In this document: positions 1-52,203 of the stretch, piece by piece
Layout of the letters: each line of letters begins with the position of its first letter
How positions within the stretch are numbered: position 1 is the first letter of the stretch
Origin: Candidatus Uhrbacteria bacterium
GTDB lineage: Bacteria > Patescibacteriota > Patescibacteriia > UBA9934 > GWF2-40-263
DNA: 64,000 nt
Direction: 5' to 3'
NCBI GenBank assembly: GCA_016188425.1
Contig: JACPHX010000020.1
Span: 1,821-65,820, forward strand
Position numbers and translations under genes: made by a program
The notes under the pieces: model-generated
Seen by the model: the letters and a program-made list of their open reading frames with translations, nothing else
What the model was told of the DNA's origin: nothing
Database searches by the model: none

Positions 1-1715
1 GCGAACCGTTCCAAAGACGTGTCGGCATCCGTTTCGCCTGTTTGAAGCGCGTAGAGTTTGCCGTTATAGAGATCCAGGTCAACCCATTTCGTCTGCTCTG
101 GTTGTGAAACGTTGGCGGAGGAAACCGTCCAGGTTTTTGTGTCTAATCGGTTCAATGTCCGGCTCGTCTCATCCAGAATATAGCTTCCGGTTGCCTGCGC
201 CCCCGCAAGGGATGGGGCGCCCAATGTTCCTGTCAGGGTGAGCGGCGTCAGGGTATTCGCGGGGATGTTGTATCGGTACCCGCTGCCATTTTTTCCGATA
301 AGGATCAAGTCGCTTTCGATGGGGAAGAATGCCACGGCCTGTCCGCTGCCGGTTGGGGTCAGGATAGAGGGGTGGCTGATGACGGTTTCGCGTCGCAATC
401 CTTGTTCAAGGGCAGTCATGGTTTCTTGGAATCCGGCAACCGTGTCGGTATCAGCCCCTGTTTGTCCTTGCCAGGCGCTCAGTCGTATTTTTGCTTCCGT
501 GAGCAACTCTCGCGTTCTTGATTCGTTTTTATAAATAAGCGCCGCCTGCGCTTCATCCAGCAATCCTTTTATTTCCCTCCCTTTTGCCGCTTGCGCTTCC
601 ACGGCGGTTTTTTCCTGGTGTCGGTTTCGTACGAGCACGATTCCGCCGCCAAAAAGAAGGAGGCAGAGGATGCCGCACAGGATGAGGATTCGTCCACGGA
701 CGGGTACACCCCGATAGCGACGGCGCCAAGGAAGGATTTTATCCCGAAGCAATGTTCGGGGGGAGTTGCTTGCCGGGTGGGTCTGCTTCTCCTTTTTCCG
801 TTGAGCCACGAAGCTTGATACTGTGGCGGGAATACGGACGATGGTGCGCCGGATGACCGCAAAGACCCCGTGTCCTTCTTGGAGGGTTCGGGCGGGCGAT
901 GAACGTCGCTTCAAACGCGAAAGGAGGCCTTTGAGCGGGGAAGGAGCATGGTCGCCGATCATATCCTCCGTCGTTTCTGAAAGGAGGAGGAGCTCTTGGG
1001 CGGATCGGTCTTTCGTGGTATCAAGTCGGACACGCGGTTCGCGGATCTCGCTGGCTTGGATGAGGACGGCGGCGAGTTCCGCCGCGGCTGGCAGGTATTG
1101 CCGGATGCGTTCCGCCGCCCCTTTGGGCGGGAGGGTCGCGAGCAGAGCGTGGAGTTCCTGGGCGGGGATATCGCGGGGCAAATCGCGGCTGGCGGCGCAC
1201 CAGACATCGCCGGCGTTCAGGCGTCCGTCCAGAAGCACGGCGAAGGGCTTTTCCCAGGAGGGAAGTACTTGTTCCGTCTGTATGCTGCGAGCAAGGTTGA
1301 ACACTTGGTAGCGTCCGTCCTCCGTGCGGTGGAGGAAGAGCACGCACAGGTCTCCGGCTCCCGAGAGGAACATATCTTGCTCGCAGACCACGCAAGCCAC
1401 GGCATGGAACTCTTGGATGGGAATGGAAAGGGCGCCGGTGCGTACTTCATGGGCCAGATGATGGTTGAGCCCGCTTAAAAACTGTTCGAATCGGTGTTCC
1501 GCATTCGATCCTTTCTTGATGCTTTCTGCGAGGCGGTTGAGGTGTTCCCGGAAAAGTTCGTTGACAAGTTGGCCCGCATCTGTTTTTGTTTTGATGGCGC
1601 ACAGGCCAGCCACATATCCGACCCGATCGGTGAGCGGGAACAAAAAGGTCGCCAGGTGCATGCGGCTTTTTGGGGGGAGGGCAAGGATTTCATGGGCTTT
1701 CAACTCAAATGCCAT
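1..1715 (-). CDS. membrane-anchored protein, partial (3' end runs off the window start): ~250-aa cytoplasmic N-terminal domain, single TM helix, extracytoplasmic C-terminal domain
   Basis: The minus frame whose codons end at positions equal to 2 mod 3 has no stop from 1769 down to position 1 (>580 codons). It is absent from the ORF track only because no stop lies in the window. ATG candidates at 1715 and 1661. Hand translation is protein-like: ...RRRYRGVPVRGR-ILILCGILCLLLFGGGIVLV-RNRQPGKTAVEAQAAKGREIKGLLDEAQAALIYKNESRTRELLTEAKIRLSAW... Plus-strand ORFs 996..1478 and 1494..1736 are its codon-aligned antisense shadow. Confidence 0.55.
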   Translation of the reverse strand, partial: MAFELKAHEILALPPKSRMHLATFLFPLTDRVGYVAGLCAIKTKTDAGQLVNELFREHLNRLAESIKKGSNAEHRFEQFLSGLNHHLAHEVRTGALSIPIQEFHAVACVVCEQDMFLSGAGDLCVLFLHRTEDGRYQVFNLARSIQTEQVLPSWEKPFAVLLDGRLNAGDVWCAASRDLPRDIPAQELHALLATLPPKGAAERIRQYLPAAAELAAVLIQASEIREPRVRLDTTKDRSAQELLLLSETTEDMIGDHAPSPLKGLLSRLKRRSSPARTLQEGHGVFAVIRRTIVRIPATVSSFVAQRKKEKQTHPASNSPRTLLRDKILPWRRRYRGVPVRGRILILCGILCLLLFGGGIVLVRNRHQEKTAVEAQAAKGREIKGLLDEAQAALIYKNESRTRELLTEAKIRLSAWQGQTGADTDTVAGFQETMTALEQGLRRETVISHPSILTPTGSGQAVAFFPIESDLILIGKNGSGYRYNIPANTLTPLTLTGTLGAPSLAGAQATGSYILDETSRTLNRLDTKTWTVSSANVSQPEQTKWVDLDLYNGKLYALQTGETDADTSLERF

Positions 1716-4459: not shown

Positions 4460-5536
4460 ATGACCGAAACCATCTCAATCCATCTGGTCACCTGGAACAG
4501 CGCCCGCCATTTGCCGGCGCTTTTGGAGTCGATCCAAGCGCAGAGCGAGCCGCGTTTCTCGGTGCGCGTGGTGGATAATGCTTCCGAAGACCGGTCGCGA
4601 GAGATTGTGCGGGAGCAATTTCCCAGCGCGCTCCTCATGCGCAATGCGCGTAACAACGGGTTTGCGAGCGCGCATAACCAAGCGATTCGCTACGCGCTCG
4701 ACCATTGGGAGGGAGAAGACCTGTCTGACAAGTATATAGTGCTCATCAATCCGGACATCATCCTGAAACCGACATGCCTAGAGGAATTGCTTCGGGTGGC
4801 GCGGGCGCATCCGTCCGCCTCTTGCGTCGGCGCGAAACTGCTTCGGACATTCACGGAAAGCGGGAGCGATGAGGTGTTGTCGGAAAAGACTCCGTCGGAC
4901 ATCATCGATTCATTGGGACTGCATCCGCATCGGAACCGTTCGATCACGGAGTGGCGCGCGGGCGAGCTTGATCGAGATCCCCATCCCGCCGGGCGGATGC
5001 AAGGCACAGAGGGGGAAGAGGAAGAGGTGTTCGGCATCTCCGGCGCGCTCGCGCTGTATCGGGCCAGCGCCCTGGCGGATGCCTCGGCAGAAGGGGCCGT
5101 ATTCGATCCGTCGTTTTTTTCTTACAAGGAGGATGTGGATTTGGCGTGGCGGCTGCGATGGCTGGGATACGAGGCTTGGTGTGCGCCAAGAGCCGCGGCC
5201 TTCCACGAACGAGGGATGGCCGCGCCGTCTCTGCATGGCTTTTGGGCGCGCGTCTCGCATCGACGACGCCAGCCGGACCGACGAAAATATTATTCGAACC
5301 GCAACCACTGGCTCTTGCTCATCAAGAACGAATCCGCAGGCAGCCTGTTCCTGTCTGCTCCTTGGATCCTCTTGCACGAAGCGAAGCGCGTGCTGTACAC
5401 CCTGTGCATAGAACCGTTGGGGCTTGGAGCATTCGCGTCCGCTTTTCTTGGATTTCCGCGTGCTTGGAAAGCCAGGCGCTTGCTGATATCCCGCCGACGC
5501 GTGAGTCCCAAGGATATGCGGAAATGGTTTGTATGA
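4460..5536 (+). CDS. family-2 glycosyltransferase (rhamnosyl/galactosyl-transferase-like)
   Basis: N-terminal ISIHLVTWNSARHLPALLESIQAQS...VRVVDNASED is a typical GT2 start; ATG at 4460. Confidence 0.75.
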   Translation: MTETISIHLVTWNSARHLPALLESIQAQSEPRFSVRVVDNASEDRSREIVREQFPSALLMRNARNNGFASAHNQAIRYALDHWEGEDLSDKYIVLINPDIILKPTCLEELLRVARAHPSASCVGAKLLRTFTESGSDEVLSEKTPSDIIDSLGLHPHRNRSITEWRAGELDRDPHPAGRMQGTEGEEEEVFGISGALALYRASALADASAEGAVFDPSFFSYKEDVDLAWRLRWLGYEAWCAPRAAAFHERGMAAPSLHGFWARVSHRRRQPDRRKYYSNRNHWLLLIKNESAGSLFLSAPWILLHEAKRVLYTLCIEPLGLGAFASAFLGFPRAWKARRLLISRRRVSPKDMRKWFV

Positions 5537-30009: not shown

Positions 30010-30085
<76 letters not shown>

Positions 30086-30171
30086 GATTGTTCTTTCCCC
30101 TTGCAGCATCAAGGTACCCAATCGTCAGACAAACGACAAGATACGTCGAGGATTTGCTATAATCCACCCAT

Positions 30172-37943: not shown

Positions 37944-38251
37944 AAAGAACGTCGCGTCGGCGATCGTTGTGAGGAGGGGGACATGAGTAGTCTCTCTGTT
38001 CCTTGGATGTCAATGCTTTGAGCAAGAGGGGAAGCTCTGTGAGCGTTTCGAGCACGCCAACGGCGAAAAACGTGACCGGTTCACGCCCGATACGTACGCG
38101 GAAGCATGAGTGTTCGAGAACGGAACCGACGACATTCGACGTGATCTGCTGCGAACCATCGTATCCAACCCTCAGCTGAGGGACAAGACTTTGCTCATCC
38201 AAGCGCAAAAACCGTTCGACGTTTTTATCAAACATCGAACGGTTTCTGCCT

Positions 38252-38326
38252 TGGTGACCCCACCGGGAATCGAACCCGGATCTGCACCGTGAGAGGGTGC
38301 CGTCCTAACCGTTAGACGATGGGGCC
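38252..38326 (-). tRNA. tRNA-Glu (anticodon CTC), CCA encoded
   Basis: Minus strand: GGCCCCA-T-CGTCTAACGGTTAGGACG-GCACC-CTCTCAC-GGTGC-AGATC-CGGGT-TCGATTC-CCGGT-GGGGTC... Acceptor GGCCCCA/TGGGGTC with one G-U pair; anticodon loop CTCTCAC. Confidence 0.85.
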
Positions 38327-38574
38327 GTGTTTTGAGCAATTTTTGCTTTCAACTCCTTTCTTATAATGCCAGATTTTTTTATCTGGATTTCGCGTTTTCG
38401 TGCTTCGGTAACAGTATTGTATGTTTCAATGTGGACGACTTTATACGGCCGGTATCCTTTTGTGGATCTTACATTACCAGAATTATGCTCTTTTAATCGG
38501 GCATCTATATTATGTGTCATCCCAATGTACCAGCGTCCTGTCGGGATTGAAACAAGAATATAGACCAGGTGCAT
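38305..38574 (-). CDS. small GIY-YIG nuclease-family protein
   Basis: MHLVYILVSIPTGRWYIGMTHNIDARLKEHNSG is a canonical GIY-YIG N-terminus. The ORF 3' end reads about 20 nt into the tRNA-Glu 5' region. Confidence 0.75.
   Translation of the reverse strand: MHLVYILVSIPTGRWYIGMTHNIDARLKEHNSGNVRSTKGYRPYKVVHIETYNTVTEARKREIQIKKSGIIRKELKAKIAQNTAPSSNG
38306..38329. repeat. 24-bp direct repeat, copy 1 (covers the tRNA-Glu 5' acceptor and D-arm)
   Basis: TAACCGTTAGACGATGGGGCCGTG, identical to 38626..38649. Confidence 0.8.
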
Positions 38575-38596
38575 ACGTTTACGATAGTGCCGTCCC

Positions 38597-38624
38597 CCGG
38601 CGGAGCCGGGTCCGGCTCCGCCGG
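38597..38624. repeat. 28-bp palindrome family, intergenic copy (central GGG variant)
   Basis: CCGGCGGAGCCGGGTCCGGCTCCGCCGG. Confidence 0.8.
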
Positions 38625-38625
38625 A

Positions 38626-38649
38626 TAACCGTTAGACGATGGGGCCGTG
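38626..38649. repeat. 24-bp direct repeat, copy 2 (duplicate of the tRNA-Glu 5' end)
   Basis: TAACCGTTAGACGATGGGGCCGTG; flanks the GIY-YIG gene plus the 28-bp palindrome. Confidence 0.8.
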
Positions 38650-38704
38650 GATAAATACACGGCGAAGGGTAACAAATCGTCCGCCATGTTACAATACCAT
38701 TACT

Positions 38705-40375
38705 ATGGGGGACTTGTTTCTTGAGATAGGTTCACTCGTTATTTTGGTGGCGGTGATTTCGTTTGTGGTGCAGTGGTTCCGGCAGCCGCTTATTTTGGCG
38801 TATATCATCGCGGGGATTGTGGCGGGGCCCAGTCTTCTGCATCTGGTTCGTTCCCCCGAGGCATTCGACACGTTTGCGAACATGGGGGTGGTTTTTTTGC
38901 TGTTTACGGTTGGCCTGGGCCTCAATTGGCGGAAAGTAAAAGAGGTGGGAGGGCCCTCGACGCTGATGGGGGTCGGGCAAGTGGTGTTTACCTCCCTCGT
39001 CGGATTTTGCCTTGGGAGCGCGCTTGGGTTCGATTGGCTCACCAGCGTCTACTTGGCGGTAGCTTTTTCCTTTTCCAGCACGATTATCATCATCAAGCAT
39101 CTTTCCGACAAGAATGAACTCGATTCCCTCTACGGGCGCATCAGTGTCGGTTTCCTCCTGGTGCAAGATTTCATTGCCGTGATCCTTCTCCTTCTGTTGC
39201 GCACGGTTGAAAAGGGGGCGACGGTTGCGCACATTCTTTCTTCGACCGGAGAAAAACTTCTTTTGTTTTTGGTTGGAGGAGCCCTCGCGCTCCTGATTGC
39301 CCCGCGTATCGTGGCGCGGGCGGCCCGTTCGCAGGAGTTGTTGTTCGTGTTCGCGCTCGCTTGGTGTTTCTTTTTTGTGGCGATGGGCGCGCGGGCGGGG
39401 TTTGGGATGGAGATCGGGGCGCTGGTAGCCGGGGTTTCGCTCTCGGGGACGGTGTATGCCACGGAAATAGCGGCGCGGCTGCGTCCGATCCGCGATTTTT
39501 TTCTCCTGTTGTTTTTTGTGATCTTGGGGACGCATTTGCAGTGGCAGGCGCTTCCAGGGAACTGGGTATCCACGCTCGTCTTTTCCGTGTTCGTCTTGGT
39601 GGGCAATCCGCTGCTGGCGCTCCTCGTTATGCGGCTCTTGGGCTACCATTCAAAAACAGGATGGCGCGCCGGCACCACGGTGGCGCAGATATCCGAGTTT
39701 TCTTTCCTGCTTCTGGCGGTGGGCGTATCGCTTGGGCATATAGATGCCACGAGCGTTGGGGTTGCCACCGGAGTCGCATTGCTGACGATCGGGTTTGGTT
39801 CGTACCTTATCAAATACAACGAGCAGATGTACCGCTGGTTCCGGCCTTTGTTCCATCGTATCCTCCCCTGGCCGGCCTCCCGGTGGCATGGCCGGGCGGG
39901 AAAGACGCCCGAAATATTCCTCTTGGGGTTCCATGGCGTCGGGCAGGTGTTGCTTCAGGGGCTGCATGATTTGCGCCGTTCCTATGTGATTGTAGATTTT
40001 GACCCGCATGTGGTGCGGCGGCTTATGGAACAAGGCGAACCGGTTATGTACGGGGATGCGGGCGATGAAGAATTTTTGCGGGATCAACAGATAAAAAAGG
40101 CCAAGTTCGTCCTCTCTACCATCCCCGAGAAACAGATGAGCATCGATTTGCTCTCGAGTCTTAAAGATATCGGTTTTTCCGGCGGGGTCGTGGTATCGGT
40201 ACCCGAACCAAAAGATGCGGCCGATTGTTATGCGGCGGGCGCGGATTTTGTCATCATTCCAAAGCAATTGGGGGGAGAGAAGGTCAAAGAGATCCTCGAA
40301 CATTCCAAGATTACGGCCCGCTCCTGGCGCTCGCTCGGGAAGGCGGCACAGGCATGCGGAGCCCTTGACGCCTGA
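38705..40375 (+). CDS. CPA2-family cation:proton antiporter (Kef-type) with C-terminal RCK/TrkA-N domain
   Basis: Twelve-helix membrane domain starting MGDLFLEIGSLVILVAVISFVV; C-terminal VIVDFDPHVVRRLMEQGEPVMYGDAGDEEFL (Rossmann, RCK-like). Confidence 0.8.
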   Translation: MGDLFLEIGSLVILVAVISFVVQWFRQPLILAYIIAGIVAGPSLLHLVRSPEAFDTFANMGVVFLLFTVGLGLNWRKVKEVGGPSTLMGVGQVVFTSLVGFCLGSALGFDWLTSVYLAVAFSFSSTIIIIKHLSDKNELDSLYGRISVGFLLVQDFIAVILLLLLRTVEKGATVAHILSSTGEKLLLFLVGGALALLIAPRIVARAARSQELLFVFALAWCFFFVAMGARAGFGMEIGALVAGVSLSGTVYATEIAARLRPIRDFFLLLFFVILGTHLQWQALPGNWVSTLVFSVFVLVGNPLLALLVMRLLGYHSKTGWRAGTTVAQISEFSFLLLAVGVSLGHIDATSVGVATGVALLTIGFGSYLIKYNEQMYRWFRPLFHRILPWPASRWHGRAGKTPEIFLLGFHGVGQVLLQGLHDLRRSYVIVDFDPHVVRRLMEQGEPVMYGDAGDEEFLRDQQIKKAKFVLSTIPEKQMSIDLLSSLKDIGFSGGVVVSVPEPKDAADCYAAGADFVIIPKQLGGEKVKEILEHSKITARSWRSLGKAAQACGALDA

Positions 40376-43287: not shown

Positions 43288-45207
43288 ATGGCAAAAATTC
43301 TTGGGATCGATTTGGGAACGACGAATTCTTGTGTCGCGATCATTGAAGGAGGGAAACCAAAAGTGCTTGATAACAGCGAAGGGTATCGCACCACACCTTC
43401 GATCATTGCGACGTCCAAGACAGGCGAGCGTTTGGTTGGGCTTCCTGCCAAACGCCAGTCGGTGACGAATCCGACGAACACCTTGTACTCTATCAAGCGC
43501 CTGATAGGCCGCCGCTTTACCGATGCCGAAGTGCAGCGTGATTTGGCGGTGTTCCCGTTTAAGATCCAGAAGCGCGGTGAAGGCGTCGAAGTACTCATGG
43601 GAGGAAAGGCATACACGCCGGAGGAAATTTCTGCGATGGTTTTGCAAAAGATCAAGAGTGATGCGGAAGCGCGTTTGGGCGAGTCGGTGACGGAAGCGGT
43701 CATCACCGTCCCTGCGTATTTCGACGACGCGCAGCGCCAGGCCACGAAGGTTGCAGGCGAGATCGCTGGCCTCACTGTGAAGCGCATCATCAACGAGCCG
43801 ACGGCGGCGGCGCTGGCGTATGGGTTTGACCAGAAGAAAGGCCAGCAAGTGCTCGTCTACGATTTGGGGGGCGGGACGTTCGACGTCTCTGTCCTCGATT
43901 TGTCCGCGGATACCGTTGAGGTGAAAGCCACCAACGGCGACACGCATTTGGGCGGCGACGATTTCGACCGCGTCGTCATCGACTGGATCGTCACCGAGTT
44001 CAAGAAAGCGGAAGGAATCGATCTTTCGAAAGATCCGCTCGCGATGCAGCGCATCAAAGACGCCGCCGAAAAGGCGAAGATCGAACTCTCCACCGCCGCC
44101 CAGACCGAAATCAACCAGCCCTTCATCACTTCCGATGCCAACGGCCCGAAGCACCTCGTCGTCCCTTTCACGCGTTCCCAGCTCGAATCATTGTGCCTTC
44201 CCCTCGCGGAGCGGACGATGGAGCCCGTGCGCCAAGCGCTCGCGGACGCGAAGATGGAGAAAAACGCCATCCACGAAATCATCATGGTCGGCGGCATGAC
44301 GCGCATGCCTCTCGTGCAGAAGAAGGTTGAGGAATTCTTCGGAAAGAAACCCAACCTATCGATCAATCCCGACGAAGTCGTTGCCCTGGGCGCCGCGGTA
44401 CAAGCCGGCGTCCTCCAAGGAGAGGTGAAAGACGTCCTCCTTTTGGATGTCACGCCTTTGTCGCTGGGCATCGAAACGTTGGGCGGAGTGATGACCGCGC
44501 TCATCGAACGCAACACGACGATTCCGACTTCCAAAGGCCAGACTTTCTCGACCGCCGCGGACAACCAGAATACGGTGGAGATCCACGTCCTCCAAGGCGA
44601 GCGGCCGATGGCCGCGGATAACAAGACTTTGGGACGCTTCGCGCTCTCGGGCATCCCCCCGGCTCCTCGCGGCGTTCCGCAAGTCGAGGTAAAATTCGAC
44701 ATCGACGCCAATGGGATCCTGAACGTCTCGGCCACCGACAAAGCATCGGGCCAGGCGCAGAGCATCCAGATCAAAGCGTCCACAGGTCTCTCCAAGGAAG
44801 ACATCGAGCGGATGAAAATGGAAGCGGAGCAACACGCGACGGAGGATACGAAGAAGCGTGAGCTTATCGAAGCACGCAACCTGGCGGAGCAGATGGTGTA
44901 CACCTCCGAGAAGATGCTCAAGGACAATGAGGCGAAGGTTTCGGCGGAAGATAAGAAGGCCGTGGAAGAGAAGATTGCCGCGATGCGCTCGGTCAAAGAT
45001 GCGGATGATCTGGACGCGATCAAGAAGGCGGGAGACGAGCTGACGGATATCGCGCAGAAGGTGGGGGGCAAGCTCTATCAATCGGGGCAGGCGCAAGGGG
45101 CGCAGGGGGCGTCCGGCGAAGCCGGATCCGGCTTCGCCGGACAAGGGGGAGGCGACGAACCGAAGACGGAGGGGGCACAGGATGCGAATTTTACGGAGAA
45201 GAAGTAA
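43288..45207 (+). CDS. dnaK: molecular chaperone DnaK (Hsp70); C-terminal tail contains a 28-bp palindrome copy
   Basis: [17 protein letters not shown]...[10 protein letters not shown]... full Hsp70. The tail ...[18 protein letters not shown] is read from the palindrome at 45113..45140. Confidence 0.95.
45113..45140. repeat. 28-bp palindrome family, copy in the dnaK tail (GAAGCC variant)
   Basis: CCGGCGAAGCCGGATCCGGCTTCGCCGG, in frame, encoding [10 protein letters not shown]. Confidence 0.7.
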
Positions 45208-47235: not shown

Positions 47236-49604
<2,369 letters not shown>

Positions 49605-51558: not shown

Positions 51559-52203
51559 TCACGCCGACCGGCGTCCTCGGAGCGCATCTCCAAGCGTCAC
51601 TTCATCCGCATACTCGATCGAGGCGCCAATCGGCAGGCCTCGCGCGAGGCGGGTGACGCGGCGGCCGAGGGGTTGTCCGGCGGAGCCGGATCCGGCTCCG
51701 CCGGACAGGCGGCGGGCGAGGTAGAGCATCGTTGTTTCGCCCGAGGCTGTGGGGGAGAGGGCGAGGATGACTTCCTCAATGGCCGGTTCGGCCTTGAGAC
51801 GGTCTTCCAGGTCGCGCACATGGAGGACGTCGGGGGTGATGCCTTCGATGGGATTCAGCGTCCCTCCCAGGACAAGATAGTAGCCCTTGAAGACGCCGGT
51901 ATCTTCAAACGTAGCGATGTCACGCGATTCTTCGACTACGCACAATAGTCCTGGAACACGGTTTGGATCGCGACAGATGTCGCAGGGGATAGATTGCGAA
52001 AAAGAAAAACAACGCGGACAAATTTTGATGAGTTCCGCGAGCGACAGGAGGTGGCGCGCGATGCGTTCCGTTTCTTGCCGGGGCTGTTTCAGCAAATGAT
52101 AGACGTACCGCAAGGCAGTCTTGGGGCCAACACCGGGAAGTTGGCCTAAAGCCGAAACCACGTTTTGGATTGGTTCAGGAAAACGTCGCACATCACATGC
52201 CAA
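51559..52203 (-). CDS. recR: recombination protein RecR with an in-frame palindrome insertion
   Basis: PEPIQNVVSALGQLPGVGPKTALRYVYHLL (HhH), C4 zinc finger CPRCFSFSQSIPCDIC, Toprim domain. Insertion SGGAGSGSAGQ near the C-terminus. Confidence 0.85.
   Translation of the reverse strand: MACDVRRFPEPIQNVVSALGQLPGVGPKTALRYVYHLLKQPRQETERIARHLLSLAELIKICPRCFSFSQSIPCDICRDPNRVPGLLCVVEESRDIATFEDTGVFKGYYLVLGGTLNPIEGITPDVLHVRDLEDRLKAEPAIEEVILALSPTASGETTMLYLARRLSGGAGSGSAGQPLGRRVTRLARGLPIGASIEYADEVTLGDALRGRRSA
51677..51704. repeat. 28-bp palindrome family, copy in recR
   Basis: CCGGCGGAGCCGGATCCGGCTCCGCCGG. Confidence 0.8.

Follow-up and report, generated by a model that had tools for sequence, protein, structure and literature searches.

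How does a small nuclease gene come to lie within a tRNA gene of which an intact copy is retained? tRNA genes are usually seen as compact, untouchable units whose 3' ends act as landing pads for integrase-bearing islands. The question is posed by the tRNA-Glu(CTC) gene of a Candidatus Uhrbacteria bacterium, located in a stretch of 64,000 nucleotides of contig JACPHX010000020.1 that was analysed as a whole (termed here the window), in which an open reading frame (ORF) for a GIY-YIG nuclease is placed between the intact tRNA and a partial second copy of it. The locus is best read as the core of a ~400-bp cassette lodged in tRNA-Glu(CTC), and it is a member of a large family of mini GIY-YIG cassettes situated between an intact tRNA and a hairpin-riddled partial copy. 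We lean towards the explanation that the cassette is selfish, a minimal relative in kind of the phage nuclease SegB, residing in a partly duplicated tRNA gene and riding on the tRNA promoter.

All elements of the locus are encoded on the minus strand and comprise, from 5' to 3', a tRNA-Glu remnant extending from nt -3 to nt 30 with hairpins at 21/22, a spacer, the ORF, the complete tRNA-Glu and a terminator. The complete tRNA-Glu(CTC) (38252..38326) has an encoded CCA and is recognised by both ARAGORN and the Rfam tRNA model (61.9 bits), confirming that the gene is intact. The 24-mer TAACCGTTAGACGATGGGGCCGTG occurs exactly twice in the window, at 38306-38329 and, as the first part of the remnant, at 38626-38649, whereas 0 copies are expected in shuffled sequence even with 3 mismatches tolerated. 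The original prediction had described a perfect 24-bp duplication of the first 24 nt of the tRNA; the two copies are indeed exact, although the repeated segment consists of CAC plus tRNA nt 1-21, and the duplication extends further than 24 bp, since nine more bases, GGACGGCAC (38587..38595), corresponding to tRNA nt 22-30 (the 3' strand of the D-stem and the first part of the anticodon stem), resume past a 30-nt insert. The presence of GGACGGCAC beyond the palindrome carried by this insert indicates that the palindrome was inserted, at nt 21/22, into a leftover 5' portion of the tRNA. The duplicated unit is thus tRNA-Glu -3..30, broken in the D-loop between nt 21 and 22. The insert itself (38596..38625) is a double-hairpin element, TCCGGC-GGA-GCCGGA followed by CCCGGC-TCC-GCCGGG, and holds a 28-bp palindrome at 38597-38624 (T + palindrome + G). 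The palindrome had previously been noticed as a neighbour of the ORF, distinct from the tRNA copy; its presence stands, but it is an integral part of that copy and of a conserved layout.

A 12-nt spacer, TATCGTAAACGT (38575..38586), which has diverged among relatives and contains no Shine-Dalgarno motif, separates the remnant from the ATG of an 89-aa minimal GIY-YIG nuclease ORF of the Slx1/UPF0213 type (38305..38574). The ORF had been said to run ~20 nt into the tRNA, and the overlap measured is 22 nt: tRNA nt 1-21 encode its final 7 codons and its stop, with the stop TAG formed by tRNA nt 19-21. The distance between the two 24-mer copies is 296 bp, holding just the 270-bp ORF. Immediately 3' of the tRNA, a terminator-like hairpin, AAACCGTTCGA ... 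TCGAACGGTTT followed by TTTT, was read directly from the sequence at 38207..38245. An independent Logan contig from SRR12113421 (L111), which terminates within the palindrome, reproduces the palindrome, the 24-mer and the Kef-side flank exactly. The junction is thus shared by two independent assemblies and is no artefact of a single one, so that the duplication, which had been expected to disappear on re-assembly if spurious, is retained.

The ORF product is 100% identical to an NCBI Candidatus Uhrbacteria protein and matches the Pfam GIY-YIG family PF01541 over residues 1-67 (50.6 bits against a cut-off of 22.6; E 2.4e-13). Residues Y5 (VYI), Y16-x-G18 (WYIG), R26, H30 and E62 are invariant across 16 relatives, down to 38% identity. 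The 89 residues comprise the GIY-YIG domain and a short basic C-terminal stretch alone, and no separate DNA-binding module for target specificity is found in them. A PDB profile search revealed that the closest solved relatives are 1zg2 (E 3.5e-11), 1ywl (1.4e-9) and SLX1 chains (5e-4 to 3e-3), with no I-TevI or UvrC chains at E<=0.01. The ratio of non-synonymous to synonymous substitution rates (dN/dS) is 0.10-0.19 in four less diverged cassette pairs and 0.56 in a fifth, very close pair, L009/L008. The low dN/dS values, together with the invariant GIY-YIG positions, indicate that the protein is functional and under purifying selection. On these comparisons the protein belongs to the minimal standalone Slx1/UPF0213 branch of GIY-YIG nucleases, and it is predicted to be a metal-dependent endonuclease. 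The Slx1-like standalone branch has been described, and its domains are found fused to, or in operons with, the TrmH tRNA methyltransferase and COG4123 methyltransferases (PMC1564403). No assigned function was found, in the literature searched, for the bacterial standalone members. Members of COG4123 are now regarded as tRNA m6A37 methyltransferases.

The family is large, with 17,479 clusters at 50% identity (E<=1e-3) or 3,326 clusters at the stricter E<=1e-10, and its members are mostly 79-110 aa long. Four proteins of 160-215 aa (P0271, P0272, P0278 and P0290) contain two GIY-YIG stretches each, probably representing tandem cassettes read through as a single ORF. Other assignments were discarded: PADLOC matches to known defence systems are marginal (E about 3e-3), and the sole NCBIfam match is a sub-threshold group I intron endonuclease. 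The best match in a phage protein library is to a homing endonuclease family. A lookup of the exact protein sequence of the window ORF returned no entry. A first broad protein alignment (A1) proved too diverse for locus scans and was set aside.

Loci encoding related proteins were retrieved by protein similarity alone, 22 from a set with one genome per species and 80 metagenomic, giving 100 non-redundant loci. A co-oriented tRNA lies <=200 nt from the ORF in 83/100 of them, and for 10 of the other 17 the flank is too short to decide. Nearby tRNAs share the orientation of the ORF in 97/98 cases, and tRNA density is 2.45 per kb close to the ORF versus 0.077 per kb farther off. Where the tRNA is 3' of the ORF, a partial tRNA copy is present 5' of the ORF in 50/62 loci, beginning at tRNA nt 1 in 38 of these 50, and the ORF stop codon falls within the tRNA in 44/62. 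Where the tRNA is 5' of the ORF, a mirror layout is observed, with a partial copy 3' of the ORF in 24/32 loci that finishes at the tRNA 3' end in 20/24. As a control, partial copies matched the locus's own tRNA in 51/63 loci, a tRNA of other identity in about 10/63 and a distant stretch in 3/51. The proposal that the tRNA 5' end is the target holds only for the clade of tRNA-Glu cassettes to which the window belongs (the Glu clade); among relatives the mirror layout, in which the tRNA 3' part is duplicated, occurs as well.

Comparable layouts are found in >60 unrelated contigs with diverse gene neighbourhoods. Cassettes are associated with tRNAs for Glu, Ser, Pro, Arg, Tyr, Ala, Val, Cys, Asp, Met, Thr, Ile, Leu, Asn and Lys, and the named hosts include Uhrbacteria, Kaiserbacteria, Saccharibacteria, Omnitrophota, Bacteroidota, Acidobacteria and Desantisbacteria. 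Homologues at 59-72% identity finish in APSSNG* or GPIV*, because both termini are the tRNA-Glu 5' end translated in two frames. For a given protein, the nearest neighbour at another locus shares its tRNA amino-acid identity in 55 cases versus 15, and lineages cross isoacceptors, since the nearest protein to the CTC-associated one of the window is associated with TTC. In L037 and L040 a single contig holds several divergent paralogues next to different tRNAs, one unit is followed by a truncated second ORF in L038, and two near-complete tRNA-Pro copies are present in L012, L068, L077, L092 and L100. In L061 (2891-4704) an intact tRNA-Ser(TGA) precedes five units of 376 bp in tandem, each comprising a GIY-YIG ORF, a hairpin-broken tRNA-Ser 3' part and an identical 21-nt flank; the array looks like a segmental amplification. 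The second tRNA gene of the window, tRNA-Pro(CGG) (30011-30086), has neither GIY-YIG ORF nor remnant, and tRNA-Pro is a frequent cassette host in other phyla.

The partial tRNA copies are almost always interrupted by GC-rich hairpins of a single motif family (TCC...GGA or YCCSG...CSGGR), exemplified by TCC...GGA, TCCCGCC-N4-GGCGGGA, CCTGCCTGCCGGCAGGCAGG and TCCGGCC-TGAA-GGCCGGA. Over 375 kb of loci, 85/161 GC-rich YCC...GGR hairpins lie <=100 nt from the ORFs, and this clustering is seen in several phyla. The hairpins enter the tRNA at the edges of the D-loop (12/13 and 21/22) or, elsewhere, substitute entire tRNA arms, from nt 10/11 to 25-27 or from 27/28 to 43-45. In the Glu clade (window, L002, L003, L006, L026 and L028) a 30-bp element occupies the identical position 21/22, with variable loops and constant stems. 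A model of two adjacent 6-bp hairpins gives 100% paired cells in this clade and 2 compensatory pairs, both in the first hairpin of L028, whereas a single long 28-bp palindrome, with 94.9% paired cells, fits less well and was rejected as the conserved structure; the 28-mer of the window is perfect because its two loops happen to be complementary. In L004 the element is found at 12/13 in reversed orientation, which suggests that it also moves independently.

Copies of the element are also dispersed in coding genes. The palindrome occurs four times in the 64-kb window, against 0 expected, and three of these copies are away from the cassette. The 30-bp element, which is free of stop codons in every reading frame, is inserted in frame in the C-terminal tail of dnaK (45112..45141), in a glycosyltransferase family 4 (MraY/WecA-like) gene (49329..49358) and in recR between the Toprim and C-terminal domains (51676..51705), adding 10 aa in each of the latter two. 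The element is found at 0 copies in 42 kb of cassette-free Uhrbacteria relatives (L106-L110). A further in-frame copy was noticed within tsaD of L003 (5249-5278), read as PAKPDPALP, and the L003 genome also bears a GIY-YIG/tRNA-Glu cassette. In L012 (3234-3309), and also in L092 and L100, the D-arm of the second tRNA-Pro copy is wholly replaced by a perfect palindrome, TCCCGCCATGGCGGGA, and the L012 copy is still called a tRNA by ARAGORN and Rfam (50 bits). No RNA family other than tRNA was detected by Rfam, either at E<=1 on the region or at the gathering threshold on 12 loci.

Divergence within the Glu clade provides a measure of the age of the arrangement. Among its six cassettes the proportion of synonymous differences is 0.75-0.84, equivalent to saturation. 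The hairpin element is 27-30/30 identical among the five loci with the TCCGGC form, 30/30 between the window and L002, and 24/30 in L028. Remnant nt 1-21 match the local tRNA at every variable site: L006 and L026 carry T4 in both copies, with a compensating A69 in the intact tRNA, and in L002 T5 is shared by remnant and tRNA. The spacer adjoining the remnant is unalignable across the clade (alignment columns 60-72 diverged). A saturated ORF alongside a conserved remnant and hairpin argues that the insertion is old and that no recent one-off duplication took place, and a simple recent target-site duplication was rejected on this ground. Thus, of the mobile-insertion signature initially proposed, the discrete cassette, the tRNA-derived direct repeats and the recurrence are retained, while the fresh target-site duplication is not. 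The remnant and hairpin are thus either selected or continually regenerated.

A 10/12 sigma-70-like promoter is located 10-22 nt upstream of the remnant in L006, L028 and L009, and a terminator is found 3' of the tRNA in L006 and L009. The suggestion that the tRNA promoter lies upstream of the cassette is therefore supported in relatives, although not in the window, where no consensus promoter was found. The terminator hairpin at 38207..38245 was missed by the automated scan of the window because its loop is 15 nt long; the transcription unit likely ends there. A promoter cannot be accommodated in the 12-nt spacer that separates remnant and ORF and, taken together with the promoters and terminators of the relatives, this makes it likely that remnant, hairpins, ORF and tRNA are co-transcribed as a single RNA. 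Cleavage by RNase P at the 5' end of the tRNA would sever the ORF from its stop codon, so that nuclease synthesis would be intrinsically limited. The 398-nt transcript is predicted to fold with the remnant 5' strand paired to the tRNA 3' end (z = -4.0), a model in which the remnant and intact tRNA copies can compete for pairing.

Comparison with related genomes reveals occupied, unoccupied and altered sites. The proteins flanking the cassette are at best 57% (Kef) and 59% (MurF) identical to those of relatives (52-59% overall). In L108, from a related Uhrbacteria genome, tRNA-Glu(CTC) is found 5' of kef and, like that of the window, on the strand opposite to it, is directly preceded by a promoter sequence, TTGCAA-17-TATTAT, and has neither GIY-YIG ORF nor remnant, while in L001, from another Uhrbacterium, the ORF and tRNA-Glu(CTC) are present and the upstream remnant is absent. 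Kef-side relatives (52-57% identity) contain riboflavin genes in place of the tRNA beside kef, and in one of them, L108, the unoccupied tRNA-Glu(CTC) is 2.3 kb away; in MurF-side relatives (57-59% identity) the tRNA is absent at the locus. The comparison of empty and occupied sites that had been called for thus yields the unoccupied tRNA-Glu(CTC) of L108, although not a close syntenic pair, as flanks are <=59% identical. In a Thr-Tyr tRNA cluster the ORF lies between both tRNAs in L036 and after tRNA-Tyr in L038 and L044. The comparisons show apparent gain, loss and rearrangement of cassettes.

Other rearrangements were observed at or near these sites. The two Omnitrophota loci L008 (2648-3201) and L009 (2870-3631), the latter from Candidatus Velamenicoccus archaeovorus LiM, encode proteins that are 90% identical and contain the same tRNA-Asp remnant, and between the two genomes the cassettes are inverted relative to the neighbouring tRNA-Val. 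L114, a MurF-side relative, contains, on the minus strand at 4837-4853, a 17-nt tRNA-Glu 3' remnant, TCCCGGTAGGGTCACCA, and a terminator, convergent to murF and in the same position as the full tRNA of the window; the remainder of the tRNA is missing, and the remnant seemingly marks a recombination breakpoint at the tRNA-Glu 3' end. In L108 a large serine recombinase gene (115-1667; Resolvase/Recombinase/Zn_ribbon_recom) begins ~200 nt past the 3' end of tRNA-Glu(CTC) and may represent an integrated element that exploits the opposite end of this tRNA.

A selfish nuclease cassette would account for these observations as follows. The nuclease would break tRNA-gene DNA, as phage SegB does, and recombinational repair would copy the nuclease gene, plus a duplicated tRNA segment, into the tRNA gene, regenerating one functional tRNA and leaving the displaced part as a remnant. 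Having no promoter of its own, the cassette would be transcribed from the tRNA promoter as a single RNA, and RNase P cleavage, by cutting the ORF off its stop, would result in a low nuclease output coupled to tRNA processing. The GC-rich hairpins would most likely inactivate the remnant, so that no tRNA-like product forms and neither efficient recombination with the intact copy nor re-cleavage takes place, and would in this way stabilise the cassette.

Several observations weigh against this explanation. The layout persists in the Glu clade despite saturated synonymous sites, and such persistence is more in keeping with long residence, or even with a function for the host, than with frequent jumps. 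Any target internal to the tRNA is still present in the intact copy, which leaves self-immunity unexplained. The protein is an 80-90-aa catalytic domain without an evident DNA-binding module, yet its lineages track tRNA identity (55 vs 15). Disabling of the remnant accounts neither for the conservation of stems at the nucleotide level (30/30 in window versus L002) nor for hairpin copies inside coding genes. In addition, the scan found no consensus promoter in the window, no isogenic occupied/empty pair was found among the relatives, L108 being not strictly syntenic, and no relatives turned up in the scanned viral contigs, for which reason a phage origin was also rejected. The tRNA-type specificity of an 85-aa domain, the escape of the intact tRNA from cleavage and the conservation of stems in sequence are the difficulties that keep three rival explanations alive.

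The rival that survives best, which we regard as a tentative possibility, is a two-component system in which the hairpins would be cognate ligands or substrates, mobilised or installed by the mini GIY-YIG nuclease in analogy with REP/RAYT systems. One shared activity would then underlie both the hairpin-riddled tRNA copy and the in-frame inserts in dnaK, recR and the glycosyltransferase gene. This overlaps with the selfish cassette and does not exclude it. It is favoured by the clustering of a single motif family at cassettes of several phyla, by stems that stay conserved, with loops varying, despite saturated ORF synonymous sites, by the element of L004 at another tRNA position in opposite orientation, and by insertions that fall at D-loop edges or replace whole arms. 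The dispersed copies in coding genes of the window and in tsaD of L003, the 0 copies in 42 kb of cassette-free relatives and the presence of SLX1 among the PDB relatives point in the same direction; Slx1-type GIY-YIG enzymes are structure-specific nucleases. Conversely, nuclease and hairpins are linked by proximity, dispersed copies were inspected in one complete window, the hairpin insertion sites display no target duplication or other transposition signature, and hairpin types vary with host taxonomy too, itself confounded with protein phylogeny. We know of no GIY-YIG enzyme that acts as a transposase. The more specific claim, that a structure-specific nuclease recognises the hairpins (as DNA or as leader RNA), remodels tRNA copies by placing hairpins at loop edges or exchanging entire arms, and seeds the in-frame 30-bp inserts of housekeeping genes, is unlikely; if true, it would define a previously unrecognised GIY-YIG system comparable to REP/RAYT or, if it operates through RNA, a nuclease assisted by a guide or decoy.

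A resident host function is more doubtful still. The protein would be a tRNA-linked housekeeping or regulatory factor, co-transcribed with the tRNA and acting, for example, on tRNA precursors or tRNA-gene DNA structures, and the partial copies would have arisen incidentally by local tandem duplication rather than as traces of mobility. A long-lived layout whose ORF is under strong purifying selection, the tracking of tRNA identity by protein lineages and the single transcription unit with the tRNA suggested in relatives agree with this, as do the predicted pairing of the leader 5' strand with the tRNA 3' end and the TrmH and COG4123 fusions and operons of Slx1-like domains (PMC1564403). The distribution is patchy, however, since the tRNA-Glu(CTC) of L108 is unoccupied and the tRNA-Pro of the window is without a cassette; tandem arrays and truncated copies occur, insertion positions differ within conserved tRNA clusters, divergent paralogues lie by different tRNAs on one contig (L037, L040), and the best phage-library match is to homing endonucleases.

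Very improbable is a device acting at the RNA level, in which the transcribed remnant and hairpins would serve as a guide or scaffold for the nuclease, or as a tRNA-mimic decoy of antitoxin-like character. The remnant does track the local tRNA variant exactly, including the compensated acceptor-stem change T4/A69 in L006 and L026, next to a spacer that has fully diverged, changes in the hairpin stems preserve structure, and a promoter cannot fit between remnant and ORF. The identity of remnant and tRNA could also result from gene conversion or re-duplication, though, and the remnant lies on either side of the ORF with the hairpin either way round, which fits a DNA-level feature better. Moreover, tRNA segments are cut to 7-12-nt pieces at some loci, the remnant is absent at others (L001), and Rfam gives no match to a leader family.

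Finally, an integrase-island scar, a group I intron or an assembly artefact has a negligible probability: direct repeats of a tRNA part around foreign DNA are the classic integrase-island signature and are present here, but the repeat spans the tRNA 5' end and the 296 bp between repeats contain just the 89-aa ORF, with no tyrosine or serine recombinase; group I introns, in tRNA genes and elsewhere, commonly contain GIY-YIG genes, but no ribozyme match was obtained (Rfam E<=1) and the tRNA is uninterrupted; and palindromes and repeats can cause misassembly, but the same layout is present in the independent assembly L111 and in >60 unrelated contigs.

A 270-bp nuclease gene devoid of a recombinase thus divides tRNA genes of numerous identities, in Patescibacteria, Bacteroidota, Omnitrophota, Acidobacteria and other groups, apparently borrowing the tRNA promoter and even using a tRNA-encoded stop codon. 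The cassettes place the ancestral-looking Slx1-type GIY-YIG domain in a testable context, that of tRNA-gene DNA and GC-rich hairpins, and may account for a class of short palindromes inserted in frame in proteins from uncultured bacteria. In practice, they also break contigs and lead to mis-called ORFs at the tRNA loci of metagenome assemblies. In L001, L002, L027, L057, L065 and L111 the contig ends at the tRNA or within a hairpin, and cassettes appear to be a recurrent source of assembly breaks. In the window, the longest ORF of the adjacent Kef-type antiporter begins inside the tRNA remnant (38639-38704; MGPWINT...), while translation probably starts at the ATG at 38705 (MGDLF...), in agreement with database protein P0031; spurious N-terminal extensions can arise in this way from cassette remnants.

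A search of the full-text literature, with incomplete journal coverage, retrieved no account of bacterial tRNA genes split by a small nested GIY-YIG gene. The cassettes fall within a known kind, the free-standing GIY-YIG homing-type element, while their conserved hairpins are unexplained and possibly a new component. As expected of a homing endonuclease, the nuclease gene lies in or next to its presumed target in 83/100 loci. The closest parallel is SegB of phages T4 and T6, a free-standing GIY-YIG homing endonuclease encoded in a tRNA gene cluster (PMC2330249, PMC13096335). SegB cleaves inside tRNA genes, is tRNA-associated across phages with many isotypes, and drives recombination-dependent duplication of tRNA and segB (PMC13096335). 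Both systems embed a GIY-YIG gene among tRNA genes of many isotypes, and the segmental duplication driven by SegB resembles the tandem units of L061 and L038. In contrast with the phage-encoded SegB, the present protein is chromosomal and consists of a catalytic domain of 80-90 aa alone, its ORF is fused to the tRNA 5' end, and conserved GC-rich hairpins systematically interrupt one of the tRNA copies. SegB is about 220 aa long and includes a DNA-binding part. The cassettes would extend the SegB finding, nuclease-driven duplication of tRNA genes, from phages to cellular chromosomes.

A second parallel is mitochondrial. Paquin and colleagues reportedly described, in 1994 and 2000, free-standing GIY-YIG ORFs of fungal mitochondria with a duplicated gene end, and double-hairpin elements in Allomyces. 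In those systems, as here, a nuclease ORF is inserted, a functional gene copy is regenerated and a displaced fragment is left behind, and the Allomyces elements likewise consist of two adjacent GC-rich hairpins, mobile and located beside such insertions, a resemblance in form only. Mobility of double-hairpin elements is cited in a further report (PMC3787672). The fungal systems differ in being organellar, in affecting protein-coding genes and in encoding larger endonucleases, whereas the host gene here is a tRNA and the hairpins are located inside the displaced fragment, at loop or arm boundaries.

Integrase islands and prophages share with the cassettes the direct repeat of a tRNA part that brackets foreign DNA and the regeneration of an intact tRNA. 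They differ in that the present insertion contains no integrase, measures ~0.3 kb, duplicates the 5' part (in the Glu clade) and displays a repeat interrupted by hairpins. With REP/RAYT systems and Rickettsia palindromic elements (RPE) the cassettes have in common short palindromic repeats dispersed in the genome, which are found, as in RPE, in frame in housekeeping genes (dnaK, recR and the glycosyltransferase gene, and tsaD in L003), and, possibly, by analogy with REP/RAYT, a dedicated linked nuclease gene. The enzyme linked here, by proximity, is of the GIY-YIG type rather than an HUH Y1 transposase, and the present elements, of 15-30 bp, are concentrated in tRNA remnants. Within the protein family itself, UPF0213 also includes E. 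coli YhbQ and Bacillus YazA, whose genes are, to our knowledge, single-copy and not reported beside split tRNA genes, and Slx1 acts with Slx4 and has a RING domain. The cassette nuclease shares with the UPF0213 proteins of 1zg2 and 1ywl, and with eukaryotic Slx1, the same minimal GIY-YIG domain family, in the form of a standalone catalytic domain (PMC1564403).

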